DNA of 64,000 bases from a virus (taxonomy: Duplodnaviria > Caudoviricetes): positions 68,904-132,903 of the IMG/VR virus record IMGVR_UViG_3300032303_002003; one strand, given 5' to 3'. Made by a program: the position numbers and the translations under genes. How positions within the stretch are numbered: the stretch's first letter is position 1; each line of letters begins with the position of its first letter. Below are positions 3,959 to 55,720 of this stretch, piece after piece. Under the pieces are notes generated by a model. The model searched no databases and was not told the origin of the DNA. It was given only the letters and a program-made list of their open reading frames with translations.

Positions 3959-4690
3959 TTAATATTCGGCTTCAGCAGCGTTTTCTTCTTCTCCGCTACC
4001 ATAATTTATTTCATCATCTTTTTTAACTGGTTTTGGTTCAATTTTAACAGGAGGTTTTACAGGTGAAGAAGACTTATCTTTAACCAATTCAATCCAAGTT
4101 TTTGGACCAACTACACCATCAGGTGTTAATCCTTTTGAATTTTGAAAATCAATAACCATTTGTTTTGTTCTACCACCAAATACTCCATCAATTGTTCCGT
4201 CTTTACTGAAATTAGGAAATCCGTGTTTTTTAAGATGTTTTTGTATTTCTTTAACAATATCACCCTTAACACATTTTTTGATAAAAGTTCCTGAAATAAT
4301 ATCAGCACCTGTTGCAGTCGTTGTTGGACAAGCCGCCGGTGATGGTGATGGATTTGGTCCTGGCGCCGGTGATGGTGGTGGGATTACAGGTGGGTTTGGT
4401 ACAGGTGGTGTAGAAGTACAAAATGGTTCAGTTTTTGCCCAATTTAAATCACAACAATATTCTTTGAAAAAATCTTCGGACGTAAGTGGTATTCCGTCGC
4501 TATCCATTATAGGTCTTTTAACATTATTAAAATATAAATATATACCTTTAGAACCCTTACGAGTTTCAAACATATTTAAAAAAGAATCAATGCTGTCAAC
4601 TTTTTTATTATTTTCATCAAATAAATAAATATTTTTTTCGTCGACTATCGACATATAAGTTTTATAAAGTATTTTTCGTTTTTTTAACAT
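3959..4690 (-). CDS. peptidoglycan-binding (PG_binding_1) domain protein with Pro-rich linker
   Basis: VKEIQKHL...DGVFGGRTKQMVIDFQNSKGLTPDGVVGPKTW. Confidence 0.8.
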   Translation of the reverse strand: MLKKRKILYKTYMSIVDEKNIYLFDENNKKVDSIDSFLNMFETRKGSKGIYLYFNNVKRPIMDSDGIPLTSEDFFKEYCCDLNWAKTEPFCTSTPPVPNPPVIPPPSPAPGPNPSPSPAACPTTTATGADIISGTFIKKCVKGDIVKEIQKHLKKHGFPNFSKDGTIDGVFGGRTKQMVIDFQNSKGLTPDGVVGPKTWIELVKDKSSSPVKPPVKIEPKPVKKDDEINYGSGEEENAAEAEY

Positions 4691-16345: not shown

Positions 16346-17062
16346 ATGAATTACAAAAAAATATATGATGACTTAATGTCTACAAGAATTCTCTTAAAAC
16401 CGCAACGAATCAAACAGAAAAGTTGTGGTTTTTATTTTGAGGGACATCACATAATACCTAAATGGATGGGCGGTTCGGGAAATAGTAATAGACCAAAAAA
16501 TAATCCTAATATTGTTCTTTTAACCGCAAGGGAACATTTTTTATCTCATTGGTTATTATGGAGAATATATAGGAATAGACCATCTTCTTTAGCATTTCAT
16601 AGAATGATTTCTCGCAACGGAAATCAAACTCGAATTACATCTTCCAGAGGATATGAAGAGGCTAGAGAATCTTACAGAATTACAAACTTGGGTAACAAAT
16701 ACGGGTTGGATAAAAAAAGGATAGTCTCAGAAGAGCAAAAGAAAAAACAATCAGAAATGATGAAAGGTAAGTATGATGGTGAAAAAAACCCTTTTTTTGG
16801 TAAAAAACACAACGACATTACTAAAGAAAAAATAAGAAAAAGTAGAGTTGATAAAAAAAAGGATAAAATTTGGAATTATTTTGGGAAAAGAATCTTATTA
16901 AAAAATAATTTAGTTGTTGGAATATTTGAAACATCTGATGAAATTGCTGATTTCATAGGATGTAGTAAGGGTAATGTTCGTCACGTTTTATCAGGAAATC
17001 AAAAAACTGCAAAGGGATATGTTATTAAATACTTAAAAGAATATTACGATTTATTGAAGTAA
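16346..17062 (+). CDS. HNH homing endonuclease with NUMOD3/NUMOD1-type DNA-binding motifs
   Basis: EGHHIIPKWMGGS...NIVLLTAREHFLSH; NPFFGKKH; start moved to MNYKK (TATTTAT at 16335-16341). Confidence 0.85.
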   Translation: MNYKKIYDDLMSTRILLKPQRIKQKSCGFYFEGHHIIPKWMGGSGNSNRPKNNPNIVLLTAREHFLSHWLLWRIYRNRPSSLAFHRMISRNGNQTRITSSRGYEEARESYRITNLGNKYGLDKKRIVSEEQKKKQSEMMKGKYDGEKNPFFGKKHNDITKEKIRKSRVDKKKDKIWNYFGKRILLKNNLVVGIFETSDEIADFIGCSKGNVRHVLSGNQKTAKGYVIKYLKEYYDLLK

Positions 17063-17140
17063 AAACTTGATTTTATAAAAAAAATGTGATATTTATTTCT
17101 TACATCACTCCTTTTTGAGAGTGTCTCATATATCAATCCT

Positions 17141-17181
17141 AAAAGACTCGCAAAAATAATTTTGACGAGTCTTTTTTTTTT
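17141..17181 (+). terminator. intrinsic terminator
   Basis: AAGACTCG...CGAGTCTT followed by a long T run. Confidence 0.7.
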
Positions 17182-17209
17182 ATTATCTTTGTTGTAAAAT
17201 AAATGTTAT

Positions 17210-18100
17210 ATGCCATTATTACAAAAACCAACCAACATTTACCACACGGGTGAACAAAATACTGCAAGTTCAAAAGATTCTTGGATGAATGAGTTTGAGG
17301 ATATGTTTAAGACAGAACTTGGTGAGAAAGTTGTTGAAGAAACCTTAAAACAAGATAAGATACAAGAGTTTGTAGAACCGGTAAAAGTAATTGAACCAAC
17401 TATTGACGAACTTACATACGAACAAAAAATGGAGTTTGTTAAAAAATTCGCAAAAGAATTTAATTTGGAATTCACGATGAAAGTCACGCCTTCTATACCT
17501 GTAAATTCAACTCCCTCTGTAACCCCAACTATTGAGCCTGTAAAAGAAGAGGAAGTAATTGAACCTGAACCAATTAAAGAAGAAGTTAAGGTTGAAACTC
17601 CAAAACAAACGGAAAAGCCGATTACCTTTAATTTTGAAAAACCTGAAGGGTGGAACAAGAAAAGAAATAGAATGAGTTTTTCTAAAGTTTTTTTTAACGG
17701 ATTATTCGGTATTGATATGGACCCAGCTGATTTTAGAAGATATGAGAAATTTATGGATAATTTTAAACCAGTACTTATTATTTTATTAATTGCGGGACTT
17801 GTTATTTCAGGTTATTACTTTAAGGTTGATGATAAAAACACAGGAAAAAAAGTAACACTTATTGATAGGACTTTTAATTTTTGTGTTGATACGTATGATA
17901 AATGGACAGGAAGAGATAAAAAATATAACCCTACTGATACAATAAAAGTTTATAATCAGGACACACCTGTAACCGAAACATTTAATATTAACTATCAACC
18001 ATATTATCTTGATTCACTTAATAAAATAGATACAACTAAAATAGATACCACTCAAACTTCAAGTGATTGGGAAAAAGAATATCAACAATTAAATAATTAA
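17210..18100 (+). CDS. single-pass membrane hypothetical protein
   Basis: VLIILLIAGLVISGYYF; TATCTTTG promoter upstream. Confidence 0.65.
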   Translation: MPLLQKPTNIYHTGEQNTASSKDSWMNEFEDMFKTELGEKVVEETLKQDKIQEFVEPVKVIEPTIDELTYEQKMEFVKKFAKEFNLEFTMKVTPSIPVNSTPSVTPTIEPVKEEEVIEPEPIKEEVKVETPKQTEKPITFNFEKPEGWNKKRNRMSFSKVFFNGLFGIDMDPADFRRYEKFMDNFKPVLIILLIAGLVISGYYFKVDDKNTGKKVTLIDRTFNFCVDTYDKWTGRDKKYNPTDTIKVYNQDTPVTETFNINYQPYYLDSLNKIDTTKIDTTQTSSDWEKEYQQLNN

Positions 18101-28189: not shown

Positions 28190-29203
28190 TTAAGAATATT
28201 TTACTGTAAGTGGGATTCTTTTACTACCGGTTCTTGCCAACCAAGTGGTATAATATTTTGCAAAATCGGGCATCTGATTTGTCAAATCAATACATCCGGA
28301 GGAACCTGCTATTCCTCCTCCGTGAACGTAAAAACTACCTCTACCGTAAGTATTAGTGTTTTTATCCGGTGAAATAGGGGCTCTATAATCACCCCAAGCA
28401 ATTCTATCATCAACACTGCCAGAATTCCAATCGTGACCGGCATCTTCATTTTCTCTCCTCATTTTATATAAATCCCAAATGTTTTTAACACCATTTATTA
28501 ACTTTTCAGCCTTTTCACCTGTTCTTGTTTGTACTGTCCCTAAAGTATAACTACCTTCAGGTAAGGGTCCCTCACTTTTTATTTTAGAATATTCTTTTGG
28601 TGATTTAACATATTCAGGATTTGCTCCGTAACCTGATACCCAATCTTTTTGTTCCGGGCTATTAGTTGCCGGTAAAGGTTGTCTTCCACTAACCGCCGAC
28701 CATTGTTTAACTGTTTTACCACCACTTAACCAAGATAATGTTTTACCATTAAAATATAAACTAGAGTCAGGTTCTTTGGTTATTTTTGGTGAAGGAACAT
28801 TATTATCATAAATTTTTTCTATTTTTTTTGCAACTTCTTTAGTTCCTGTAGATTTTGGTTCTGATGTTTTTGGTTTTGAACAACTTTGTTTTAAAGGTTC
28901 GCATCCTAATTTTGGTGCGGTAAGAACTCCAACAAACCCTGTTTGTTTAATTCCATTTTTTTTCTGAAATGCAATTACTGCTTGTCTAGTTTTTTCACCA
29001 TAAATTCCGTCAATACCATCTTTATTTGGTCCAGTTGTACCCAAAAAAGAACCAAACCCCTTATCTTTTAGTGATGATTGAATACATTCAATATTATTTT
29101 GTGGACATTGACTCAAATCAGGTATTACTGGTGAATCTTCATTTAAAAATTCACGAATAAGTTTAGTTAATTCAGATTCAGTAAGAGTTATAATTTTTTT
29201 CAT
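28190..29203 (-). CDS. leader plus PG-binding plus Tlde1/DUF2778-like L,D-transpeptidase-fold protein
   Basis: MKKIITLTESEL leader; DGIYGEKTRQAVIAFQ; GPLPEGSY, GRGSFYVHGG, GSSGCI. Confidence 0.8.
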   Translation of the reverse strand: MKKIITLTESELTKLIREFLNEDSPVIPDLSQCPQNNIECIQSSLKDKGFGSFLGTTGPNKDGIDGIYGEKTRQAVIAFQKKNGIKQTGFVGVLTAPKLGCEPLKQSCSKPKTSEPKSTGTKEVAKKIEKIYDNNVPSPKITKEPDSSLYFNGKTLSWLSGGKTVKQWSAVSGRQPLPATNSPEQKDWVSGYGANPEYVKSPKEYSKIKSEGPLPEGSYTLGTVQTRTGEKAEKLINGVKNIWDLYKMRRENEDAGHDWNSGSVDDRIAWGDYRAPISPDKNTNTYGRGSFYVHGGGIAGSSGCIDLTNQMPDFAKYYTTWLARTGSKRIPLTVKYS

Positions 29204-37232: not shown

Positions 37233-37757
37233 TTAAAAATCTATTCCTTCAACGTGAACAGGTAATCCAATATTTGGTTCCCAGTTTTGTTTAATATATT
37301 CCATAACTTTCATTAAAGAATCACCGGTGTTTCCTTCATTCATTCCTTCAACAAGTAATTCATCTTTTTCTTGTGATGTTGTTAATCTTAATTTATTTCC
37401 CGCATCAAAATATTCAAAACCATATCCATCTTCGTCAATTATATTACTTACTTGAAATATTTGAAATAGGGTGTCTCCGTCTTTTTCATCTCCAAGTATC
37501 ATAATGTCTTTATAATCAATAAATCCACTACTTATTAATCTGGACATCACCTCACTTGAAAAAATTATTTTTTCAGCATCATCAAGTTCTACTTCATCTT
37601 CTTCGGGTTCAATTTTCTCATCAGGATTTTGTAAAATATGTAATTCTTCGGGAGTAAGAGATTCTTTACCCAACTCATTCATCTTATCAAGTATTCTATC
37701 AATCTCATCTTGATTAACTAATCTTCTATACTGCTCTTCCGTTATAATAATTTTCAT
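37233..37757 (-). CDS. leader-bearing protein with DUF6576-like motif
   Basis: MKIIITEEQY; EIDRILDKMNELGKESLTPEE. Confidence 0.65.
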   Translation of the reverse strand: MKIIITEEQYRRLVNQDEIDRILDKMNELGKESLTPEELHILQNPDEKIEPEEDEVELDDAEKIIFSSEVMSRLISSGFIDYKDIMILGDEKDGDTLFQIFQVSNIIDEDGYGFEYFDAGNKLRLTTSQEKDELLVEGMNEGNTGDSLMKVMEYIKQNWEPNIGLPVHVEGIDF

Positions 37758-39466: not shown

Positions 39467-39724
39467 TTAAAGCGTAATATATTCAATACTTAAATTAAAC
39501 TTTTCTCCCGTATGGTCCAAAATTTCTTTTATATAATCTTGAATATCTTGTTCTTGTTGGTATTCGGTCCCATCAACATAAATTACCACATTAAAAATTC
39601 CCTCCTTCATCCTGTAATTTTCGCTCACATCTTCAACCTCAACGCTTTCAATTTCAGGAAATTTCTTTGGTAAAAGAGTTGATAATAATTTCTTAAACAT
39701 TTTATATTTTTGTTCTGTAGTCAT
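39467..39724 (-). CDS. small alpha/beta module protein
   Basis: KKFPEIESVEV motif shared with 42281 and 44673. Confidence 0.65.
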   Translation of the reverse strand: MTTEQKYKMFKKLLSTLLPKKFPEIESVEVEDVSENYRMKEGIFNVVIYVDGTEYQQEQDIQDYIKEILDHTGEKFNLSIEYITL

Positions 39725-43023: not shown

Positions 43024-43293
43024 TCAATCTTTAATCTCATCAACAATATCCTGAAACTCACCTTCATCAGATATATAATTCAATTTATCCATAAAGTTAT
43101 AATATATTTTTTTGGAATAATTATCAACAAGTTGATTAATCCTTCTTCTGGACCTAATAGATGTTACATCAACATATTCATTTATATTTTGAATAATAAC
43201 ATCTTTTATTGAATCAATTGTTATTGGTTCATAAAATTCTTTTTCCTGTTCCAAAATATTTTTAAATTGAGATTCGGTTATAATATATTTCAT
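43024..43293 (-). CDS. leader-bearing small protein
   Basis: MKYIITESQFKNILE. Confidence 0.7.
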   Translation of the reverse strand: MKYIITESQFKNILEQEKEFYEPITIDSIKDVIIQNINEYVDVTSIRSRRRINQLVDNYSKKIYYNFMDKLNYISDEGEFQDIVDEIKD

Positions 43294-43938: not shown

Positions 43939-44146
43939 TTTTTAGAAAAAAAATGCCAAAATTTTTTTTTAATATACCACCCCTTTTTATAAACACCCCG
44001 TCGTGTTTTAGAAAAACAAAATCTAAAATACCCCCATTTACCCAAAAATTTTTTTTTGATTAACATAGGGGATTGTCCCCCCTATTAGTGACAAAATGAC
44101 GGGTAGGGAGGGGGGATACGGAGAATAGGTCAGGGGGGGAGGGTAG

Positions 44147-44218
44147 TTATCCCCACTGAGGGGGGGTAGGTATGTGGATAACTTTTTATTATCCCCCTCC
44201 CCATATAAGTTATCCACA
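44147..44218. promoter_or_regulatory. DnaA-box cluster (left)
   Basis: TGTGGATAA 44173-44181, TTATCCACA 44210-44218, TTATCCCCA 44147-44155, in non-coding G-run-rich DNA. Confidence 0.6.
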
Positions 44219-44299
44219 GTATGACACCTTGTCTGTTAATAACTTTATTTCCATATGTCTTGACTATATCATATCTTTGTACCCAATAAAATAAATCAT

Positions 44300-44701
44300 A
44301 TGACGGACGAACAAGCTATCAAGTTTAATAAGTATGTTGCAAAGCAGACCAAGAATGTTATGGTGGATAGGGTAATAGAAGTCACAACATATAGAATGCA
44401 GTTAAAGGTTAAGGTATCATCTGTTATTGCTCCCAAAGGTAAGTGGGGTGATTTCAGATTTAATGTTAAGGTGGTGGAGAGTAAGGTTAAATCATCTGTA
44501 TGGAATCAGGATGGTACAAGAGTTAGAGATAACAATGGGGACCTTGTGTTTGAATATGTTCCCCGACGCATAAATAGAAGTGATGTTAATAACACCAATA
44601 ATAATATCAGAAGGGAAGTTGGATATAAGTGTAGGGAGATGTTGGGGTTCTTTGGTATTGATGGATGGAGGGTTAAGGTTGAGAAGGTAACCCACTCTTA
44701 A
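44300..44701 (+). CDS. basic hypothetical protein
   Basis: ORF track; TATCTTTG upstream. Confidence 0.7.
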   Translation: MTDEQAIKFNKYVAKQTKNVMVDRVIEVTTYRMQLKVKVSSVIAPKGKWGDFRFNVKVVESKVKSSVWNQDGTRVRDNNGDLVFEYVPRRINRSDVNNTNNNIRREVGYKCREMLGFFGIDGWRVKVEKVTHS

Positions 44702-45128
44702 GTGCATCCTTATCAATATAGAAATTTGATATATCAAATACTCTTTCATTTGCTAATCTTAATTCTTGGGGGATTGCATTGGACCGAGCTACACTATGTA
44801 GTATATTTAGTATATCATCAATAAGTGGTTTGAAATAAGCAATTCTTTCTTGTATGTTATCACCATTAAAAAATGCTGCAAAACTTGATGCTCCCCATAT
44901 ATTTGGGTCAGAGCTCAAATAATACCTCATATAGAAGTTATCAATCTCATACTTTGGCATAATCTCCATTAACTTATAAATGTCAATGTATATATCTAAA
45001 AATATTAGGGATTTATATTTCTCCACATCATCGGGGACCACCAATCTAATAATAAATGGATAATTTTTTTTTAATATCTTTTTAACCGCCTTAAAGGGGA
45101 AACTACTTTCTACTTCCTGTTTATTCAT
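44673..45128 (-). CDS. alpha/beta module protein
   Basis: KNYPFIIRLVV; TATTTAT 4 nt upstream. Confidence 0.65.
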   Translation of the reverse strand: MNKQEVESSFPFKAVKKILKKNYPFIIRLVVPDDVEKYKSLIFLDIYIDIYKLMEIMPKYEIDNFYMRYYLSSDPNIWGASSFAAFFNGDNIQERIAYFKPLIDDILNILHSVARSNAIPQELRLANERVFDISNFYIDKDALKSGLPSQP

Positions 45129-45197
45129 ACATATAAATATATTATATATAATAAAAATAGATTTTGCCGTCTCAATTAATTGTCGTACCTTTGTACT

Positions 45198-45611
45198 ATG
45201 AAAGTAACAACAAAGACATATAATCTATCCCCCCGTGAGCATAAGCGTATCGTGGGGGAAACCATTAAGTGGTGTCAGCAGTTCTTTGGTATAAACCATA
45301 GGAGAAAAAATGAGTTCACTTATTATGTGGGTCCCCAACCCAAACGCTTACTTAAAAAATATGGTAAGTACTTCGGGTGTTATGACTGCGTTAAAAATAA
45401 GTTGAATATATTTCCCGAGAACAATAAGAATATTAAAGACCTGATTAAAACCACCATCCACGAATATACCCATTATACCCAACCCATTCGTTCCAAGTAT
45501 TACAAACTTAATGAACAGTATGGTTATCTAAACAACCCCTTTGAAGTGGTTGCTCGCACAAATGAAAAGTTATATAAAGTATGTTGGAAGTCTATTAAAG
45601 GTTCTCTATGA
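45198..45611 (+). CDS. small zincin-like (HExxH) protein
   Basis: TTIHEYTHYTQ...NPFEVVAR; TACCTTTG 4 nt upstream of ATG. Confidence 0.75.
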   Translation: MKVTTKTYNLSPREHKRIVGETIKWCQQFFGINHRRKNEFTYYVGPQPKRLLKKYGKYFGCYDCVKNKLNIFPENNKNIKDLIKTTIHEYTHYTQPIRSKYYKLNEQYGYLNNPFEVVARTNEKLYKVCWKSIKGSL

Positions 45612-45846
45612 GGACCTGACAGTGTGAAATGATTTGCTTGGGGGTGATATTGTCACCCCCATATTCGTATAGTCCCTCCACTTTAGCATCCACACATCCC
45701 CATTTAGTTGGGAGAATAGGTTTCTTATTCCATATGTGTTTGGGTTTCTCAAAATATAATAGTCCTAATGTTACCCCACTTATTCCCACCTCCACACATA
45801 TACGGTCCTCCGTTAGTCTTTGAATGTCGTATGTCAATTTGTCCAT
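45595..45846 (-). CDS. hypothetical protein
   Basis: ORF track. Confidence 0.55.
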   Translation of the reverse strand: MDKLTYDIQRLTEDRICVEVGISGVTLGLLYFEKPKHIWNKKPILPTKWGCVDAKVEGLYEYGGDNITPKQIISHCQVLIENL

Positions 45847-45883
45847 AGTGTTAAATATAGGTTAAGAACATATAAAAATAAAG

Positions 45884-45930
45884 TTATCCACACCCACTTA
45901 TCCACACTGACATATTGTCTATGGGGATAA
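45884..45930. promoter_or_regulatory. DnaA-box cluster (right)
   Basis: TTATCCACA 45884-45892 and 45898-45906, TGGGGATAA 45922-45930. Confidence 0.6.
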
Positions 45931-46717
45931 CTTTTTGTTAAAAAATTTGAAAATGTCATATTGTCAGTTGGGTGTTACAGTGGGGACAATCCCCTTCCCC
46001 CATATTAGGGGTTACAGAAATAAACATTTCCTCCCACTTTTTACCACCATTATTAGGCTGGTTATAGGTAGAACCCCACTTTTTCCCTTCTGACGCTATC
46101 AGGAGAACCACTTTTTTACTATATACATTTTCCAGCTAAAAATAGAAGACTTAAATTAAATGCGGGTGGGTGAACGTAGTGAACCTTTAGGAGTATATCT
46201 TCAACGAAAATTTGTTTTATGTCCACATTTATTCCAACGAAAAAGTGTATATTACACCACATAAAACGAACGATAATATTCCCCATTAGTAAACATATAG
46301 TATGGTGGGATTTTGTGGGGATAATATAAGTTATAAAGTTAGGGTAGATATTTACACTTTGTGTAATGGAATGAGGGTGGGTATAACTTATTATTCCCAC
46401 ATAGTATATGTAAGAAAATGAGACATATAACGGATTTATTCCTGTGGGTTTATCCCACCGACTGACAAGGAGTATATACTCTCATAATTTTACATACTAT
46501 ACCCACATAAGATATGTTATTAATATATGGGGGGTAAATTGTCGCGGCAGTGTCGCGAGAATTTAATGAGGGGAAATTATACTTCTCCGAATAGAATGAG
46601 GGGAAGAAAGAATTAACTTATGAAAGAGGACAACCCCATCCGCAGGAATGGGGGATTTGTTGTCCGAGTGAATAAGTTAATTGTTTATTCCATAGTATTT
46701 TTTTATCATTATGTATT

Positions 46718-47347: not shown

Positions 47348-47764
47348 TTATTTTTTCTTTACACAATTTGGATATCTTTTCCCAAACATAGTTTTCATCC
47401 CCTTTTGAGTATATCCTTTCCAACACTTTTCTGTTAGTTCCTCTTCTGTCATTTCTTCTTTATCAGATTTTAATTTTTCTTTAACATAGTTAACTAATGG
47501 TTCTTCATATTTCATATATGATTTCCAATATTCATTATCTGTTGCCGCATTATCAATATCATTAAATTTTTTTGTTGCAATAAGTTGCCTTACAGCGTCA
47601 TAAATCGCATCTTCCGAATAATCATACACTTTAATCCTATTCTTAACATCTTTAACCAAATCATCCAATTCATCAATATCAAATCTTCTTCTAAACCACG
47701 GGCTGAGACTTTCGTTAATACCCATCACCTCCTTAATTCTCTGTATGTTTTCTTGTAAGTTCAT
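47348..47764 (-). CDS. leader plus RR-like module plus CWxGY...PNCV tail
   Basis: MNLQENIQRIKEVMGINES; ELTEKCWKGYTQKGMKTMFGKRYPNCVKKK. Confidence 0.75.
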   Translation of the reverse strand: MNLQENIQRIKEVMGINESLSPWFRRRFDIDELDDLVKDVKNRIKVYDYSEDAIYDAVRQLIATKKFNDIDNAATDNEYWKSYMKYEEPLVNYVKEKLKSDKEEMTEEELTEKCWKGYTQKGMKTMFGKRYPNCVKKK

Positions 47765-47797: not shown

Positions 47798-48121
47798 ATG
47801 AAATATGTTATAACGGAAACACAGGCTGAAAGGATTAAAATTCTTCGTAGGATTAATGGCGAGGATTGGGATTGGATAAGTGAAATAGTTGAGGAAGGAA
47901 TTGATTTATATAACCCCTGCCATTATGAAAGCAAAGAAGATTATATGGATTCTGTTGCAAGAAGTTGTGCTAATGCTTATCTATTAAACTATTTTGATTT
48001 TGGGAAGCGTTCAGATACATTTTTCCAACTTTATAATTATATGATTGCATTAATTAAAAAAAGAATGGGTGATGATATAATGAACCATTATGAAGATTTA
48101 ATAAACGATTGCGAAGATTAA
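47798..48121 (+). CDS. leader plus RR-module protein
   Basis: MKYVITETQ..ILRR...PCHY. Confidence 0.75.
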   Translation: MKYVITETQAERIKILRRINGEDWDWISEIVEEGIDLYNPCHYESKEDYMDSVARSCANAYLLNYFDFGKRSDTFFQLYNYMIALIKKRMGDDIMNHYEDLINDCED

Positions 48122-48122
48122 T

Positions 48123-48398
48123 ATGAAATACATTATAACGGAAACACAAGCTGAAAGATTGCAAGTTATGAGAAGAATAAAAGAATTAAGGGAGTATATC
48201 AAATCTTCGGATGCTTATAACTATATTTGTGATTATAGCTCATTTGATGATTTCTTATATGACGGATTATATTTGGGTATGCAAGAGGATGGAGAACTTG
48301 ATTGGGTAACATCAAATAATATTGATTATGTGTTTGATGTTATTAACACGATGTTCTATAAGGAATTAAAAAATTTTTATAAAAATAGATGCAATTAA
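48123..48398 (+). CDS. leader plus RR-module protein
   Basis: MKYIITETQ..VMRR...ICDY. Confidence 0.75.
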   Translation: MKYIITETQAERLQVMRRIKELREYIKSSDAYNYICDYSSFDDFLYDGLYLGMQEDGELDWVTSNNIDYVFDVINTMFYKELKNFYKNRCN

Positions 48399-48399
48399 T

Positions 48400-48795
48400 A
48401 TGAAATACATTATAACAGAAAATATGTTTAAAGACCTTGTCCGTAAATTAATGGGTGGCAAAAGCAAAGAAGAAATAGAAGAAAATAAGAGACGTATCAA
48501 AAAACTGATGGATAAGTATATGACCCACCATTTGTTAAGCGGATTAAAAGAAGGCGAGGTTAAGGGTTATATAAAAGGTTGGTATAAAGGAAGTAACCCT
48601 GTTATTGGTATAACACATTCAGGCATGATGAATTTTAATGAAGATTTGACTGATGACTTACAAAAAACATTTGGTTTAAATTATGATGATGCAAAGGAAG
48701 CTATTGCTATTCGTATGATAGATATGTATAACATAACTGAACCTGTTAAATGGACTAAATTCAATTATAAGGTTGAAGATGATGAAGATTATTAA
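48400..48795 (+). CDS. leader-bearing hypothetical protein
   Basis: MKYIITEN; LQKTFGLNYDDAKEAI. Confidence 0.7.
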   Translation: MKYIITENMFKDLVRKLMGGKSKEEIEENKRRIKKLMDKYMTHHLLSGLKEGEVKGYIKGWYKGSNPVIGITHSGMMNFNEDLTDDLQKTFGLNYDDAKEAIAIRMIDMYNITEPVKWTKFNYKVEDDEDY

Positions 48796-48804
48796 AAATT
48801 AATT

Positions 48805-49497
48805 ATGAAATACGCTGTAGACAATTTTAGTGATGATGAATTAATGAGAATTATTCGTAAATTTATTAATCACATATACGGGAAACAATTAACTATGAAA
48901 GAAAATAGTAGTGGGTATATTAATTTCTATTCTTCGGGACCCGTGGCACCATATCACAGAAACTTATCAGGTAGATTGTGGATTGATGATGATAGATTAT
49001 ATAATATAATAGAAACTTTCTTTTCAATAAGTGGACATCAGGCACTTGCCTTAATTGGTTTTTATTTCTCAAATTTTTATGGTATTAAAGTAACGGACGC
49101 AAGAATTCAATCTCACATATTTTTTGATACACGAATTGATTATTCACAGTTTGATGATGAGAACTATCAAGTTGAAGATGATGATGATGATGAGGATATT
49201 ATAACTGAATCGCAGTTTGATAGATATAAGAAATTAGTTAGAAAATATGTTATATCTATGAAATATCCTGGTGTTTGTAAGATTGAGGTGATGGATGATG
49301 AAGATGAAGATAAGATGTATGTTCACGTTTTCTTTTCCGCCGAGTGGTATGCAGAAACCGCTAATACTGGAGGTGAGATGAGTATTGTAAAAAAAGTTGT
49401 GGGAACAATTGTGGAAATAAAACAAGAATTGGAAGAAATGTTTTCCCCTATGAAATTTTATGTGGGACATAGCATTAGAGCAAATAAAAATTGTTAA
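48805..49497 (+). CDS. two-module protein with internal IITESQ leader-like linker
   Basis: ...EDIITESQFDRY...MKYPGVCKIEV. Confidence 0.7.
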   Translation: MKYAVDNFSDDELMRIIRKFINHIYGKQLTMKENSSGYINFYSSGPVAPYHRNLSGRLWIDDDRLYNIIETFFSISGHQALALIGFYFSNFYGIKVTDARIQSHIFFDTRIDYSQFDDENYQVEDDDDDEDIITESQFDRYKKLVRKYVISMKYPGVCKIEVMDDEDEDKMYVHVFFSAEWYAETANTGGEMSIVKKVVGTIVEIKQELEEMFSPMKFYVGHSIRANKNC

Positions 49498-49498
49498 T

Positions 49499-49783
49499 AT
49501 GAAATACATTATAACTGAAACACAAAGAGATAGATTAATGGTAAGAAGAAGATTACCTGAACTTAAAGATTTGATTCAAAACTTATTCCCTTTTTATTAT
49601 CCTTGCGATTATGATTCTTTATCAGAATATATGATGGCAATGAAAGTTGAAATGTTTGAAACACTAACACTTGATTGGTTTGAAGGTGTTGATGAAGATG
49701 TAATTTGGGATATGGTTACAGATATATATAGTGATTATATGGCCGATAACTATATCTCCAATTGTGGAGAAAACCAAAAATAA
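49499..49783 (+). CDS. leader plus RR-module protein
   Basis: MKYIITETQ..VRRR...YPCDY. Confidence 0.75.
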   Translation: MKYIITETQRDRLMVRRRLPELKDLIQNLFPFYYPCDYDSLSEYMMAMKVEMFETLTLDWFEGVDEDVIWDMVTDIYSDYMADNYISNCGENQK

Positions 49784-49788
49784 TAACT

Positions 49789-50088
49789 ATGAAATACATC
49801 ATAACGGAAACACAATTACATTATTTAAGAAGATTATCTATTATTGATAAGTTAATTAAAAGTTCTCTTGAAATGTTTGATAGATGGCACTTTTCTAATA
49901 TTGATGTTGATTATATGATTAAATATCTTGTACCAGATGTTGCCGAATTATATTTTTTTAGATTTGCCGACGACATTTATATTGATGGTGAGGATTATGG
50001 TAAATTAACAGATTTTCTTGAAGTATATTTGGAAAAAAATTGGAGAGATAAACTTGAAAGCATAATAAAAAGTCATAAAGGAAAATGA
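49789..50088 (+). CDS. leader plus RR-module protein
   Basis: MKYIITETQLHYLRRL. Confidence 0.75.
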   Translation: MKYIITETQLHYLRRLSIIDKLIKSSLEMFDRWHFSNIDVDYMIKYLVPDVAELYFFRFADDIYIDGEDYGKLTDFLEVYLEKNWRDKLESIIKSHKGK

Positions 50089-50462
50089 AATACATTATAA
50101 CAGAAGAACAACATTTAAGATTATATAAGATAATGAAAAATCTTATGCTTGAAAGGCTTCCAATACTTGAATTTCCTCTTGAAAAAAAGAATATTTTTGT
50201 AAAGGGTAATAGTGGATATGGTTCAGGTTTAGATGACTATAACAAATTTACAACATTCTATAAAGATGCTGATGGTGAGCCTTGGTTTAAAGAATTTGAT
50301 GATAGAGATAGATTTGAAGATTCCAAATGGGAGGTTAATGAAGGATTAGAATTTCTTTTTGATGTATTTGGTGAAGATTTGTTTATGGATTTCGTTAAAC
50401 ATTATTTTAACATAAACCTTAGAGTAAAAGGTAATAAATCTTGGGATTGGGTTTTTAGATAA
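50085..50462 (+). CDS. leader-bearing hypothetical protein
   Basis: MKYIITEEQ. Confidence 0.7.
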   Translation: MKYIITEEQHLRLYKIMKNLMLERLPILEFPLEKKNIFVKGNSGYGSGLDDYNKFTTFYKDADGEPWFKEFDDRDRFEDSKWEVNEGLEFLFDVFGEDLFMDFVKHYFNINLRVKGNKSWDWVFR

Positions 50463-50930
50463 TTATATGTAAGCTGGTTTGTTGTTTAATTCTTCTTCTG
50501 TTGGTGGTACTACATAATATATGTTGAATAAACTATAATGTGGTTCAAATCCTATTCTTTGTGATAAATTTTCAATTTCTGTTGATAGTTCATATGGTTG
50601 TCCTTTATAATTATTATCTACAAAACGTTTATCAATCTCCATTCCGTAATATATAAACATATCTTCTTTTGATGTATAGTTTCCCCAATTCTTACTCAAA
50701 TTTTCAAAGTATTCAGGTTTGATTTCTATGAGTATTCTTGCACCCCAAGTGTTACGCATCATTCCTCTATGAAACTCTTCCTCTTCTTTTAATTCAACTG
50801 AATAAAGTTTTTCAACCCAAGTATAATCACCTTTCTTTAAGATGAGTTTATTAATCATCTTTGCTAAAACTTCCTCTGAATGAGCTTTGTCTTCTCTTAA
50901 TACTTTTCTTATGGTTTCTCTTAAATTCAT
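50463..50930 (-). CDS. leader-bearing hypothetical protein
   Basis: MNLRETIRKVLRED. Confidence 0.7.
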   Translation of the reverse strand: MNLRETIRKVLREDKAHSEEVLAKMINKLILKKGDYTWVEKLYSVELKEEEEFHRGMMRNTWGARILIEIKPEYFENLSKNWGNYTSKEDMFIYYGMEIDKRFVDNNYKGQPYELSTEIENLSQRIGFEPHYSLFNIYYVVPPTEEELNNKPAYI

Positions 50931-52198
50931 TAAACTTTTCTTTTAATTAGTGAGAAGTAATACCCCATATTATTATTCTTATCACCAGGTTTTTTAATAA
51001 GTAGTGGTTGTCCTACCATACCATCTAATTTTTTCTTAACTTCCTTCCAATCTAAATCGGGAAACCAAGATGCGAAATTTCTTAATAAATCATTCCAAGA
51101 TTCAAATTTGTCTGAAAAACCATTTCCTCCGTGTCTATATGCATGCTTCCAAAATATGTAAGAATCACCTAAAATATTATTATCTAACTCAAAAAAATTA
51201 TCTATGAATTCTTTGAGCTGTTTTCCGTATCTTTCACGAAAAAACTCTGCCAATTCATCTACCAACTTTTGTTTTTCATCATCAGGCATTTCGTATAGTT
51301 CAGGTACTTCATCAATAAAAACATATGCGGTATAATGACAAGCCCTACTAGTCAAACCAGCTAAATTGTTTGATTCTTTACTATATCTGTATGAACTAAG
51401 TGCTTGTTTTTTAAGTTGGTTAAATACGCTATCGTCGTCACCAAAATTAACTCTTCTTCTTAATGATGGAGGAACCGTAGATTCTTCTGTTATTTGTTCT
51501 TCATCACCAAATTCATCAATATATCTTTTTTTAATTTTGTCGTAGTAATATCTTTCCAAAAATTTCATTATGTTTTCTTCTTCTTCTTTTGTTATTCTTA
51601 TTTCAGGTTCTTCAAGCTCACCTTCTTCACCCCAATATTCAAATTCTTGTGATACATAATCAATATAAACATTAAAAATAACTTTATCTACAAACCACTG
51701 AATTCCCGCTTTTTTCAATACACTATGACTTATATGACTAACACACCAATCAATTGCTTCATCAACAATACTATCCAAATTATTAACCCTTCTTAATACT
51801 TTGTTGAGAAGAGATTTGGTTCTATCGTTGCTTTCCTTTATCATTTCACTATCTTCGCACTTTTCAACATATTTTGTATATAAATCAACATTTACTCCAA
51901 ACATATTGTATACCACAAGCCAAATTTCATCAAATATTTTTTCTTCCTTCTCTCTTACCGCTTCTGTTCTTGGCCAGTTCTTACTTCCATATCCACCAAT
52001 AAAATATACCGACACTTTATAATCATTTTCCAAATATTTGCCTCCTGATATTGTTTCCCTGTCCCAAGGAGCCACTACTTCAACTTTACACACATTACCA
52101 TATTGTGGAACAATAATTGTATCCAATAATTTAGTGATTAGATTAGTATAATCTCTCTCTTCTTTTAAAATTCTTCTTATGGTATGTTTTAGGTTCAT
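50930..52198 (-). CDS. leader-bearing multi-module polyprotein-like protein
   Basis: MNLKHTIRRILKEE; linkers MIKES, QITEES. Confidence 0.75.
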   Translation of the reverse strand: MNLKHTIRRILKEERDYTNLITKLLDTIIVPQYGNVCKVEVVAPWDRETISGGKYLENDYKVSVYFIGGYGSKNWPRTEAVREKEEKIFDEIWLVVYNMFGVNVDLYTKYVEKCEDSEMIKESNDRTKSLLNKVLRRVNNLDSIVDEAIDWCVSHISHSVLKKAGIQWFVDKVIFNVYIDYVSQEFEYWGEEGELEEPEIRITKEEEENIMKFLERYYYDKIKKRYIDEFGDEEQITEESTVPPSLRRRVNFGDDDSVFNQLKKQALSSYRYSKESNNLAGLTSRACHYTAYVFIDEVPELYEMPDDEKQKLVDELAEFFRERYGKQLKEFIDNFFELDNNILGDSYIFWKHAYRHGGNGFSDKFESWNDLLRNFASWFPDLDWKEVKKKLDGMVGQPLLIKKPGDKNNNMGYYFSLIKRKV

Positions 52199-52800
52199 TA
52201 TGGATTAACTTTTAACATATTATAAAAATAATTGGTAATACCTTCAAAGTTCTTTGCTTTTTTTCGTTTCAAATCATTTCTTGTTTTAGATATTAAATTC
52301 TCAAAATGTGATATAGGTACGTTACGATAAACCGCATTTAAAAATGGAGTATCTTCTTTATCTATTACCCCCAATTTAATAAATTCTCTCACTTTTCTTG
52401 TTGCAAACTCATCAGCAATTATCTCTATTTCTTTCATCGTTTCGGCAGCCTCTTCAACACTTATCTCGCCCAAATAACATTCATACATTTTATCATCACC
52501 ATATTTTTTATATTGATATTGGTGAGCAATTTCGTGAGCCACAACAAATAAAAAAGATGATAATGGATACCTAAAAATTATATTATTGAAGACAATCCCA
52601 TTATGTAATGCCAATCCCATTGCAGGATGTTTAAATTGGGAAACTTCTATCTTCTTACAATTTGAATTTTCAATAAATGATTTGAGATTATCAATATATG
52701 GTTCAATTTCAGGATATTTAGATACGACACTGGTTAAGAATGGTTGTATCCCTTCTGTCTCTTCTTTTAAAATTCTTCTTATGGTGTTTTTTATACTCAT
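52198..52800 (-). CDS. leader-bearing zincin-like metallopeptidase
   Basis: MSIKNTIRRILKEE; VAHEIAHQYQ ... EIIADEFA. Confidence 0.75.
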   Translation of the reverse strand: MSIKNTIRRILKEETEGIQPFLTSVVSKYPEIEPYIDNLKSFIENSNCKKIEVSQFKHPAMGLALHNGIVFNNIIFRYPLSSFLFVVAHEIAHQYQYKKYGDDKMYECYLGEISVEEAAETMKEIEIIADEFATRKVREFIKLGVIDKEDTPFLNAVYRNVPISHFENLISKTRNDLKRKKAKNFEGITNYFYNMLKVNP

Positions 52801-54407
52801 GGCAAATTAAATCCTTTTATGTAATGTTCAACTAACATAATAAATATTTCGTGAATATCTTTGTTAGACAGTTTTTCGTATGATACGTGAACATCGTTGA
52901 GAGCTCCATAACCAGCTTTATAAAAAACAGTTATAGATACTCTTTTAATTCCAAAATAAGCAATTTCCCACTCCTCAACATCAGTTTCCTTATAAACAAT
53001 TGGGTCTTCATTCAAATCGTGAACTGATATTCCTCCGTGTTTTAAAACAATATCTCTAATAAAATTTTCCTCTATTTCCCTTGTTATTGTACCTTCACCA
53101 ACTATTCTAACCAAGTCATCATAACTTCCAACAATATCAAGTGCATCTCCAATTCCTTTATTTTGTATTATATCAGTAAACTTTTTTGAGAGTGAGCTTG
53201 ATTCAGTTAAACTTTTCTTTTCAATCGCCTTGTGATACACATTTCTTATTCTATCACCAAATAAGGATTGAATTCCACCCTTTATTTCCAAAATTTCATC
53301 ATCTTTATATGTAACACTTGATTCAACAAAAGTATCATAAATGTATTCCCAAAGGTGTTCTATAACTAAATAAACAAATTCTGTTTCACCCAATTTTTCA
53401 AGTGGTATAACATTTTTATCTCTCAAATGCCATTCTATCTCATCATATATTATTAAATCCAAATGATAAAGTAAGTCATTAGGATTTATCCTTCTAAAAA
53501 GCTTATTTAATTGTTTTTTTCTATCAATATCTTCCGTAATTTTAACTTTGGTATCACAAGGTAGTGTAATAACAATCACATCAAGATGGGGTAGAAAATC
53601 ATTTATGTGTAATCTTACTTTAGTTTCAAATTCGGTGCCTCTTGTATGAGTTTCAAGAATTACAAGATAATGTCTAAAAGATTCATCATCTCCAAAGGTA
53701 TTATCCATAGCCCTAACTTGGACACCGCATAGCATATAAATCTTCATATTCAAGACAATCTCTTCAATATATTTGCACCACTTATCTTTTTTAAACTTAT
53801 TTTCCTTTCCCTCTTCTTCTGTTATTGTATCTTTGTTTAAAATACCCAAATCTTTTTTTATGTAATCTGTGTAATTATCTTTGATATAAAAATAAACCCA
53901 ATCATATTCTTTATCTTCATAATCTATTTTATTAATATCACAAAAATCACCAATAACTAAATCAAACATCGTGCTCATTAACACATCCTCATCGTATCTT
54001 TCAATATCATACTGGTAAGCGTGAGAATGTTGTGAGATTATGTCTTTGATTTGTTCGCCTCTGCGTCTCATAAACATCTCAAATCTTTTCCATTTTTTTT
54101 GCTCGTGACTATCACTTTCTTCAATAACAGGTTCACCATCACAATTGGATTCATCATAACGCTCTTTTATTTTCTTTGCATATATTTTGGAAACAACATC
54201 CCAAATTTCATTTGCATTATCCCTAAAAAATCCCTCCGAATCTATATAAGAAAATTCCGCCTTTAATGCAATAGCAAAATGACCCAATCCGTGATAATCA
54301 CAAGGGTATATAAAAGGATATGAGTTTCTAATTATACCCCATATCTCATCAAGCCTACGTAAAATTTGTAATCTTATATTTTGTTCTTCTGTAATTATAA
54401 ATTTCAT
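52797..54407 (-). CDS. five-module polyprotein-like protein
   Basis: MKFIITEEQ; linkers VIEES, TITEE, KITED, SLTES. Confidence 0.75.
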   Translation of the reverse strand: MKFIITEEQNIRLQILRRLDEIWGIIRNSYPFIYPCDYHGLGHFAIALKAEFSYIDSEGFFRDNANEIWDVVSKIYAKKIKERYDESNCDGEPVIEESDSHEQKKWKRFEMFMRRRGEQIKDIISQHSHAYQYDIERYDEDVLMSTMFDLVIGDFCDINKIDYEDKEYDWVYFYIKDNYTDYIKKDLGILNKDTITEEEGKENKFKKDKWCKYIEEIVLNMKIYMLCGVQVRAMDNTFGDDESFRHYLVILETHTRGTEFETKVRLHINDFLPHLDVIVITLPCDTKVKITEDIDRKKQLNKLFRRINPNDLLYHLDLIIYDEIEWHLRDKNVIPLEKLGETEFVYLVIEHLWEYIYDTFVESSVTYKDDEILEIKGGIQSLFGDRIRNVYHKAIEKKSLTESSSLSKKFTDIIQNKGIGDALDIVGSYDDLVRIVGEGTITREIEENFIRDIVLKHGGISVHDLNEDPIVYKETDVEEWEIAYFGIKRVSITVFYKAGYGALNDVHVSYEKLSNKDIHEIFIMLVEHYIKGFNLP

Positions 54408-54416
54408 TTTATATAA

Positions 54417-54755
54417 TTATTTGTTATACTCCTCACAAGTCATTTTATATATTTCTTTGAGCTCATTTCCAAACCAATCATAACACATACTAGTAACTAT
54501 TTCATTAATCTCTTCATATCTATAATCATCAAACATTTCTTCGTGTGTTGATAAAAAGTAACTTACCGCATCATTTATAACCGCATCCATATATTCATAT
54601 TCATAATGAAAATCACTACATAATGTTGGGTATTCCATTTCCGCATCATTAATATATTCTTTAAGAGTTTCTTTATTAAGTCTTCTTTTAACCCATAACA
54701 TAGGGTCTGACTCACATAATAATTTTGATTGTGATTCTGTTATTATAAATTTCAT
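54417..54755 (-). CDS. leader plus RR-module protein
   Basis: MKFIITESQ..WVKRRL...LCSDF. Confidence 0.75.
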   Translation of the reverse strand: MKFIITESQSKLLCESDPMLWVKRRLNKETLKEYINDAEMEYPTLCSDFHYEYEYMDAVINDAVSYFLSTHEEMFDDYRYEEINEIVTSMCYDWFGNELKEIYKMTCEEYNK

Positions 54756-55300: not shown

Positions 55301-55720
55301 TTATTTTGTTTTCTTTACACAGTTAGGATATTTTTTACCAAACATTGTTTTCATTCCTTTTTGAGTATATCCCGCCCAACATCTTTCAGTTAGTTCTGAT
55401 TCTTTCATCTCTTTTTGCTCTTCTTTGTGGGGATTTTCTAATTCGTTAATAGATTTTACAAGTTTATGACATTTTTCACTTACCCCACCCTTTTCGTGGT
55501 CAGTTATTGATACCTTTACTTTGTTGTAATTTATTGTGATATCCGGATGATGGTTTTGTTGTTCCGCTATCTTCGCAACTTTATTAACAAAATCTATTGA
55601 ATCATTAAAATCTTTGAATTTGAATGTTTTTTCCAATTTTTCTTTGGACGTTCCCCAATCTTTGGATTCAATTACATTCATCACTTCTTGTATTCTCTGT
55701 ATGTTTTCTTGTAGGTTCAT
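55301..55720 (-). CDS. leader plus pterin-4a-carbinolamine dehydratase-like domain plus CWxGY tail
   Basis: LEKTFKFKDF..SIDFVNKVAKIAEQQNHHPDI...THDxGG-like TDHEKGGVSEK. Confidence 0.85.
   Translation of the reverse strand: MNLQENIQRIQEVMNVIESKDWGTSKEKLEKTFKFKDFNDSIDFVNKVAKIAEQQNHHPDITINYNKVKVSITDHEKGGVSEKCHKLVKSINELENPHKEEQKEMKESELTERCWAGYTQKGMKTMFGKKYPNCVKKTK

Follow-up and report, generated by a model that had tools for sequence, protein, structure and literature searches.

Why should a phage encode small proteins both singly and fused end to end, with what resembles a protease site at each seam? The question is raised by a locus in a 64,000-base stretch of DNA (hereafter the window), which comprises bases 68904–132903 of the 132,903-base virus record IMGVR_UViG_3300032303_002003 and has a G+C content of ∼30%. 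A first-pass annotation had proposed that three open reading frames (ORFs) of this locus, encoding 536, 422 and 230 amino acids (aa), are polyproteins whose modules are joined by protease-site-like linkers, loaded by one leader and released by a prohead protease. Our computational analysis establishes that the three ORFs have a modular, leader-jointed architecture, with shuffling at the joints. We also lean, with modest confidence, towards the reading that they are cargo targeted to the capsid in the style of T4, both loaded and cut, and that shuffling at leader-derived joints has made this cargo combinatorial. We infer targeting, cleavage, ejection and an effector role of the modules by analogy.

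Chains of modules that also occur singly

The coordinates and module parses first given for the three ORFs hold, and the chains with their joints are as follows.

50930–52198, minus strand: 422-aa ORF with helical leader MNLKHTIRRILKEE and modules m1 (alpha/beta plait), m2 (helical) and m3 (RR helices plus an alpha/beta part)
51830–51844, minus strand: joint MIKES of the 422-aa ORF, residues 119–123
51479–51496, minus strand: joint QITEES of the 422-aa ORF, residues 235–240; stand-alone m3 proteins have ...RILREE at the equivalent position
52797–54407, minus strand: 536-aa ORF with leader MKFIITE (residues 1–7) and modules M1 (residues 8–93, helical RR), M2 (99–193, helical RR), M3 (∼199–288, alpha/beta), M4 (294–398, helical RR) and M5 (404–536, alpha/beta)
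54114–54128, minus strand: joint 1 of the 536-aa ORF, VIEES, residues 94–98; in the alignment its counterpart in P0022 and P0024, stand-alone M2 forms, is the leader ...IITEEQ
53814–53828, minus strand: joint 2, TITEE, residues 194–198; at this place in the alignment P0003–5 and P0007, M3-M4-M5 proteins of 344 aa, have their N-terminus, MKYIISEEQ
53529–53543, minus strand: joint 3, KITED, residues 289–293; stand-alone M3 proteins (P0017, P0018, P0023) end ...VKI/VNI just before it, and M3+M5 fusions read VKITES
53199–53213, minus strand: joint 4, SLTES, residues 399–403; stand-alone M5 proteins start MKYIITES (P0016) or MKKKYIIKES (P0015)
48805–49497, plus strand: 230-aa ORF with leader MKYAVDN, an N-module, an acidic tract, an internal leader remnant and an alpha/beta C-module
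49198–49215, plus strand: the internal leader remnant IITESQ, residues 132–137, after the acidic tract; the same letters occur in the N-terminus MKYIITESQF of 43024–43293

All seven joints read [LIV]-x-E-[ESD]. Independent existence of the modules, as originally claimed, is borne out by solo forms for four of the five modules of the 536-aa chain, all three of the 422-aa chain and one of the two of the 230-aa chain. M1 is indeed a paralogue of the stand-alone gene 49499–49783 (42% identity over 89 aa, E 2.8e-18 by BLASTP; 6.1e-17 in another comparison), and also of 48123–48398 (31% identity, E 1.2e-9). Likewise, the RR modules had been taken for one group, and an iterated profile search joins them into a single superfamily together with the proteins beginning at 49499, 47798, 48123, 54417, 46718, 49789, 47051 and 47348; in the same type of search the N-terminal part of m3 of the 422-aa chain groups with 54417, 47348, 47051 and 49789. 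The parallel assignment of the alpha/beta modules stands in part: they are alpha/beta by predicted structure, but no profile link unites them. A single alpha/beta family is unsupported by sequence, the best hhalign probability being 45% (m1 of the 422-aa chain against 39467–39724) and all others ≤25%.

A search of 5.8 billion proteins returned 10 relatives of the 536-aa ORF of similar length and 15 shorter ones. These 25 homologue clusters include 12 architectures other than the full chain:

P0001: full five-module form
P0002: leader plus M2-M5
P0003–5, P0007, P0009: M3-M4-M5, starting MKYIISEEQ or MKLIITEEQ exactly at the window's DTITEEE
P0006: M1+M2+part of M4+M5
P0008: M1+M2+54417-like module
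P0010: M1+M2+47798-like module
P0011–13: M3+M5, joined by VKITES
P0014, P0020, P0021: M1+47798-like module
P0022: M2+47798-like module
P0015, P0016: M5 alone
P0017–19, P0023: M3 alone
P0024: M2 alone
P0025: M1 alone

M1, M2, M3 and M5 are thus each found solo behind a leader among these clusters, and no solo M4 was seen among the same 25. Break points coincide with joints in 23 of the 25 proteins, and the remaining two join at other hydrophobic-x-Glu sites (RLDE in P0002, with the junction at RLDE|K, and FVES in P0006, with the junction at DTI|IESS). In the alignment, an internal joint in one relative can stand opposite the leader at the N-terminus of another. Comparison across relatives therefore bears out both the proposed homology of joints to leaders and the proposed shuffling of modules at the linkers. 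Loss of a stop codon was considered as a simple source of the fusions and rejected: ‘MKY’, which starts the downstream leader, is absent from the joints, and at least 12 bases must therefore be missing.

The 422-aa ORF belongs to a larger family. Searched exhaustively, 1.84 billion representatives yielded 229 cluster representatives with E≤1e-3, of which 135 reach 1e-10 and 17 reach 1e-30. The 150 matches listed fall into three modules, with boundaries near query residues 115–123 and 235–239. Fifty-five of these 150 listed proteins consist almost wholly of the three modules (31 of m3 alone, 19 of m1 alone, two of m2 alone and three of combinations); the other 95 carry further modules besides m1–m3 and reach lengths of up to 824 aa. 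Stand-alone forms start with MNLQETIRRILREE, MNLQENIxRIKEVMGINE or a near variant. Internal copies follow either a short ...[LIV]-x-E-[ES] sequence (e.g., ESIIKEE before TQIP, GYITE before SALP, and EFLNES) or, in some cases, an entire leader minus its Met (TKLQEQIRRIVREE and IKENIDRIKQVMGIITE). In long members such motifs recur about every 100 residues, as in P0165 at positions 9, 235, 329, 436 and 532. In a 55-sequence alignment of relatives, whose members are less than ∼50% identical, only two columns are nearly invariant, I7 and E13, and both belong to the leader.

The 230-aa ORF shows a similar pattern among its 26 relatives. The same fusion occurs in 10, and the N-module stands alone in eight, six of which end in the acidic tail and two of which have a longer leader. 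Three join the N-module to an RR-type module (joint DDEEVITEEQ), one joins it to a 48400-like module (VITENIF), and in three a 50085-like module precedes it (YVITENK, RLTENK and VITESE); the last relative ends at a contig end. No solo C-module was seen among the 26.

Association between joints and the motif was quantified at 39 junctions in relatives of the 422-aa ORF. Within the 16 residues upstream of the internal module core, [LIVMF]xE occurs at 39 of 39 junctions compared with 38% of all 16-residue windows of the same proteins (p 4e-17), [LI]xE at 36 of 39 (24% of windows) and [LIV][TSKNR]E[ESN] at 21 of 39 (6% of windows). Although the 39 junction proteins are representatives of 50%-identity clusters, several are evident relatives of each other, and the p-values therefore credit them with too much independence. 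The joint motif may also be partly inherited together with the module.

Structure prediction, one of the checks suggested for the linkers as domain boundaries, agrees with these divisions. The AlphaFold2 model of the 536-aa ORF (21-sequence alignment) has a mean predicted local distance difference test (pLDDT) value of 75.9 and a predicted template modelling score (pTM) of 0.34. Its pLDDT falls below 50 at residues 1–3, 91–93, 190–203, 237–242, 291–298 and 398–403. The dip at 237–242 is a hairpin loop inside M3, whereas each of the four joints falls within low-confidence coil or next to it. In the 422-aa model (55 sequences; mean pLDDT 84.2, pTM 0.50), pLDDT is below 50 at both joints (117–120 and 236–239) and at 187–197 inside m2, and the leader is modelled as a separate helix at residues 3–13. 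The predicted folds thus do not cross the joints, in four of four and two of two cases, with domain independence judged from the pLDDT dips and the low pTM. Folds that span the linkers, named beforehand as an outcome that would speak against the proposal, are therefore not what the models show.

No recognizable function emerges for the modules. Foldseek comparison of the 536- and 422-aa models with the PDB gave no match at E≤1e-3, and a BFVD search gave one, to a 97-aa viral protein without a name (E 7.4e-4). A wide structural search places m1 of the 422-aa chain among generic ferredoxin-like plaits, at a level of similarity that is common (best 3byp, Z 8.4, root-mean-square deviation 3.5, 78 residues aligned). 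Likeness of m1 to T7 Ocr (Z 5.9) is not meaningful. The three chains have no Pfam, PHROG or NCBIfam match, none of the 15 locus proteins matches a head-protein or internal-protein family in Pfam or PHROG, and the ESM Atlas gave no usable match. The locus DNA has no match in GenBank phages; IMG/VR contigs and bacterial and archaeal species genomes likewise gave none, and only two near-identical loci were found in JGI metagenomes.

Leaders and the head module

The sequences that begin the chains also begin many other proteins of the contig. We distinguish three leader types: MKYIITE; M-x-K-I-V-R-LTESDL; and MNLQETIRRILREE with its variant MNLQENIQRIKEVMGINE. Each ends in hydrophobic-x-Glu, and the endings (IITE, RLTE, ILRE/ILKE and GINE/VIES) fit, at the level of sequence, the prohead protease rule of Glu with a hydrophobic P3. 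Under strict patterns the three types are found on 13, 8 and 6 of 190 ORFs; leader-bearing ORFs overall number ∼35–42 of the 190, about a fifth. The tripeptide [LI][TS]E occurs 105 times in these ORFs, and 31 of its occurrences end within the first 12 residues, compared with 4.9 expected (p 2e-15). Because synonymous codons vary within the leaders (TAT/TAC, ATT/ATA/ATC, ACA/ACG/ACT/ACC), they are conserved as peptides. Proteins that share a leader are otherwise unrelated, and their downstream predicted folds differ. Stand-alone leader genes surround the chains:

47798–48121, 48123–48398 and 48400–48795 (together 47798–48795), plus strand: three stand-alone leader genes, all starting MKY[IV]ITE
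49499–49783, 49789–50088 and 50085–50462 (together 49499–50462), plus strand: three stand-alone leader genes, all starting MKYIITE
50463–50930, minus strand: 155-aa stand-alone gene with leader MNLRETIRKVLRED
52198–52800, minus strand: 200-aa leader protein (MSIKNTIRRILKEE) with a zincin-like HEIAH motif, between the 536- and 422-aa chain genes
54417–54755, minus strand: 112-aa stand-alone RR module with leader MKFIITES, found fused behind M1+M2 in P0008

Several leader proteins elsewhere in the window have recognizable parts. The 337-aa product of 28190–29203 (minus strand) contains PG_binding_1 (E 3e-10) and Tlde1/YkuD L,D-transpeptidase domains and has no signal peptide. A peptidoglycan-binding L,D-transpeptidase without a signal peptide would fit delivery from the virion, and we regard this protein as a candidate virion-delivered cell-wall enzyme. 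PG_binding_1 is also present in 3959–4690. Two other leader proteins (47348–47764 and 55301–55720, both on the minus strand) carry over their last ∼26 residues, after an LTE motif, a Cys-rich C-terminal tail, (E)LTE[KR]CW.GYTQKGMKTMFGK.YPNCVKK. Stretches with 85–92% identity to this tail occur in 41 records of T4-like cyanophages; the one in S-SCSM1 lies inside a 518-aa protein annotated ‘virion protein’. Leader proteins with the transpeptidase domain or the Cys-rich tail hint at action outside the cytoplasm or in the virion. One of the two tailed proteins, 55301–55720, is a pterin-4a-carbinolamine dehydratase. The relative L009 is 95% identical across the locus; its pterin dehydratase (17049–17465) has leader MNLQETIRRVLIE where the window has MNLQENIQRIQEVMNVIES, and a different C-terminal tail; by this comparison both ends of the protein are swappable cassettes. 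Several leader genes have also been gained or lost between L009 and the window. Among curated families, Pfam DUF6576 alone overlaps a leader, namely the region MKIIITEEQYRRLVNQDEIDRILDK... of 37233–37757 (minus strand; E 1e-6; 29.2 bits, cut-off 27.3).

A phage-encoded prohead protease, which the first-pass annotation had presupposed, is found in a head module on the same contig, upstream of the window. The 237-aa protein (contig bases 43148–43861) belongs to the T4 gp21 family (Peptidase_S77, 80.4 bits, E 1.6e-22; T4 gp21 structure 5jbl, E 1.7e-12), and its score against the S80 family, 16.6 bits, is below the 23.4-bit cut-off. The module also encodes a portal (Portal_T4, E 7.9e-75), a 587-aa major capsid protein (Gp23, E 4.6e-72) and a large terminase. 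Between the protease and capsid protein genes lies an acidic, scaffold-like ORF of 490 aa (contig bases 41280–42752, minus strand). The contig thus contains a T4 head-assembly set of gp20 portal, gp23 capsid protein, gp21/S77 protease and scaffold-like ORF, and by these homologies its source is an uncultured T4-type phage. The closest cultured phages by portal, at 35–41% identity, are Microcystis phage Mel-JY01 and Flavobacterium ‘immuto’ phages. CheckV puts the completeness of the source record, a fragment of ∼133 kb, at 44%, and the full genome is therefore probably near 300 kb.

The head proteins of this phage carry hydrophobic-x-Glu motifs of their own. The N-terminal extension of the capsid protein contains LLE-6, IKE-23, LKE-44 and INE-60 (followed by A), all of them N-terminal to the stretch aligned with residue 28 of mature T4 gp23, and the protease begins MKELRLLE (LLE-8). 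Both proteins carry matching motifs where T4 has cleavage sites. The S77 family of the protease and these probable natural sites are therefore consistent with the joint motif. A complex prediction that paired the prohead protease with the 91-aa leader protein 48123–48398 scored 0.00, was run without controls and counts neither way. The C-terminus of the scaffold-like protein (...LIESKTYENPQFLRIKDLMGKML) is similar to the leader variant ...IQRIKEVMGINES, and the leader may be a mimic of the scaffold's capsid-binding end.

Leader and head genes also have an upstream sequence in common. The promoter-like motif TATTTAT[AT] lies ≤45 nt upstream of 52 of the 190 ORFs of the whole contig (115 copies on both strands); in front of many start codons it stands at a distance of 11–13 or 19–23 nt, and a Shine-Dalgarno sequence is lacking. 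Genes preceded by the motif include at least 18 leader genes, the portal, the terminase and the scaffold, which is first in the capsid-protein unit; the genes for thymidylate synthase, RNA ligase and the UvrC-like, cytidylyltransferase-like and FtsH-like proteins lack it. Because the motif is common to both, co-expression of leader and head genes is suggested. The missing ribosome-binding site, together with a portal akin to those of Flavobacterium phages, hints at a host in the Bacteroidota.

Possible fates of the chains

Under the reading that we favour, the leader would direct a protein into the prohead scaffold core, by analogy with the T4 capsid targeting sequence (CTS), and the gp21-family serine protease would cleave after the Glu of the leader or joint. 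The released modules of 10–20 kDa would remain in the head and enter the host along with the DNA. Multi-module ORFs would arise when recombination or deletion in leader-coding DNA fuses neighbouring cassettes, the end of the leader persisting as a joint. A single N-terminal leader could then load a whole chain, which the protease would split into its modules.

Several observations weigh against loading and cutting. The ∼40 leader proteins far exceed the handful of packaged proteins in T4, a pterin-4a-carbinolamine dehydratase is unexpected capsid cargo, and the chain locus is ∼70 kb away from the head genes. The chain family (536- and 422-aa ORFs) has no tblastn match in 50,697 GenBank phage records. 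The comparison with the head protease leans on the T4 [L/I]-x-E cleavage rule as general background. Moreover, the motif is not depleted inside modules: beyond residue 25 the observed/expected ratio is 1.08 in leader ORFs versus 1.20 in other ORFs for [LI]xE, and 1.55 versus 1.39 for [LI][TS]E, which gives no indication that stray sites are selected against. Finally, hydrophobic-[TS]-E-x-x-hydrophobic is a classic helix N-cap and hydrophobic-staple signal; the model starts the opening helix of module 1 immediately after the leader Thr, with the motif at its N-cap, and the other modules after 3–12 coil residues.

These last two points would be expected if the chains act uncut, as intact multi-domain proteins that are packaged or not, with a joint that is no more than a start signal for the following helix and a recombination scar. 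Retention of the leader end in a fusion would then follow from the need to preserve the downstream fold, and according to passages in PMC5512222 the polyvalent proteins of phages and conjugative elements, which such chains would resemble, are often delivered unprocessed. This explanation leaves three things unaccounted for: conservation extends to residues that precede the cap (MKY-I-I or a whole 13-residue helix) across unrelated alpha/beta and all-helical folds, P3 and Glu are fixed amid varying neighbours, and the same motif stands in the phage's own capsid protein and protease at T4 site positions. We consider it unlikely, if still a serious contender. The leader could instead be an address or tag for another process, such as timed degradation by an FtsH-like AAA+ protease, localization to the membrane or pole, or a non-capsid structure, with the chains as by-products of shuffling. 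The contig does encode a 686-aa ATP-dependent protease homologue of this kind (phrog_4871, E 1.6e-232; contig bases 55597–57657, plus strand, outside the window), which is unusual in a phage, and both the large number of tagged ORFs and the presence of leaders on enzymes such as the pterin dehydratase would suit such a tag. Nothing positive ties the leaders to the FtsH-like protease, however, and the motif class of their endings, which is that of the head protease family, the promoter-like motif common to leader and head genes and the T4-type head module all speak for the capsid; we find this alternative improbable.

If the chains are cut, the leader-bearing zincin-like protein 52198–52800 might do the cutting, before or after delivery, as proposed for the autoprocessing metallopeptidase domains of polyvalent proteins. 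Its gene lies between the 536- and 422-aa genes both here and in L009, and besides the HEIAH motif it shows weak similarity to the SprT family (E 0.024) and, over the HExxH stretch, to the site-2 protease 3b4r (E 0.09). Both matches are far below curated cut-offs, and cleavage after Glu at hydrophobic-x-Glu is a signature of serine prohead proteases, not zincins. Of all the explanations weighed here, this one has in our estimate the slimmest chance. An extension of the capsid-cargo reading gives the leader a dual role, in which its conserved 12–25 bases would serve as a DNA recombination site and its peptide as both capsid address and head-protease cut site. We put this forward tentatively, as somewhat short of an even call. 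If true, it would amount to an exon-shuffling-like system in which new combinations of modules are automatically loaded, cut and injected, and it would account for a metagenome-wide family with hundreds of architectures and no cultured representative.

The organization of the locus recalls T4 most closely. Passages in PMC9026906 and PMC5694885 give T4 propeptides of 7 (Alt) to 65 residues (gp23), with cleavage after Glu, and report that foreign proteins are loaded when they carry no more of IPIII than its 10-residue targeting sequence; in part of PMC9026906 the LIE-9 of gp21 itself is said to fit its cleavage logo. According to PMC9026906, a Glu-to-Asp change stops processing in T4 but leaves targeting intact. 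T4 internal proteins are described in sections of PMC9026906, PMC3012670 and PMC5694885 as hypervariable, with only the targeting sequence in common. In the present phage, a T4-type portal, capsid protein and S77 protease likewise accompany unrelated, hypervariable small proteins with a common short N-terminal peptide that ends in hydrophobic-x-Glu, comparable to T4 IPI, IPII, IPIII and Alt with their CTS and gp21. Leader lengths, at 7–19 residues, are inside the T4 propeptide range, and, as at T-even internal-protein loci, gene content differs even between 95%-identical phages. Unlike in T4, there are three leader types rather than one, ∼40 tagged ORFs rather than ∼4, and leader remnants that recur inside ORFs as joints of combinatorially shuffled modules. 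To our knowledge, no chain of cargo modules is known from T4. There is no sequence similarity to IPI–III, Alt or the CTS, so the likeness, known here from sequence alone, is one of organization and not of descent.

Other systems share single aspects with the chains. Polyvalent proteins, as presented in parts of Iyer, Burroughs, Anand, de Souza and Aravind 2017 (PMC5512222), likewise combine several unrelated small domains, also found solo, in one phage polypeptide, and there too both packaging and delivery with DNA and proteolytic release of domains are proposals. Their repertoire is a defined one (zincin peptidase, ART, MuF, ParB, helicase, methylase and others) and the proposed release is autoproteolysis by an in-chain metallopeptidase, whereas the present modules match no described repertoire domain in Pfam, PHROG or NCBIfam and are joined by a fixed motif of the head-protease class. 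In giant phages, relatives of gp21 cut after Glu behind a short motif (passages in PMC9026906 and PMC5694885). The inner-body and ejection proteins of phiKZ, 201phi2-1 and SPN3US resemble the chains as envisaged here: they form paralogous families, are cut after the Glu of a three-residue motif at several sites each, and number among dozens of head proteins. The phiKZ-type proteases are of family S80 and recognize A/S/G-x-E, and the removed propeptides are degraded and mostly lost, according to portions of PMC10052503 and PMC5694885. Here, by contrast, P3 is I, L or V, the protease is S77, and the pieces between joints are folded modules that also exist as genes of their own. RNA-virus polyproteins resemble the chains only in their working, as one product with units separated by virus-protease sites; the viruses, proteases and purpose are unrelated, and the present chains are optional variants of separately encoded modules.

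Among the titles and abstracts listed in a literature search on phage polyproteins and prohead proteases, and in passages of PMC5512222, we found no description of protease-jointed cargo chains. The earlier characterization of the strategy as rarely described is fair for such chains, but their components are already known (T4 CTS and internal proteins, multi-site cleavage in giant-phage heads, and polyvalent proteins). The family is large, with the 229 cluster representatives found for the 422-aa ORF, and wholly unannotated. If its members are loaded and cut, T4 capsid targeting, far from being confined to a few coliphage internal proteins, would give uncultured giant phages a general and evolvable platform for cargo, one short peptide would combine address, cut site and recombination joint, and dozens of injected proteins would become candidates for anti-defence or takeover roles. 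The corresponding rule for mining virion and viral-fraction proteomes would be to look for peptides that start after hydrophobic-x-Glu at predicted domain boundaries, and the same rule might be used to design multi-cargo packaging for phage-based delivery.

Other features of the window

An ORF-free stretch of 870 bases lies at 45847–46717, and a cluster of DnaA-box-like words falls within 44140–46400. Four of the six exact copies of TTATCCACA in the window are located there (44173, 44210, 45884 and 45898), along with one-mismatch copies at 44147, 45922 and 46316; the window total of 42 such words, against 28 expected, is not significant. The region 44140–46400 may be a replication origin or a regulatory region. 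Scans of the window for tRNA and Rfam families gave no match. The plus-strand operon of leader genes (47798–50462) and a minus-strand operon (56434–50463) converge with abutting stop codons at 50462/50463 and no terminator-like spacer between them.

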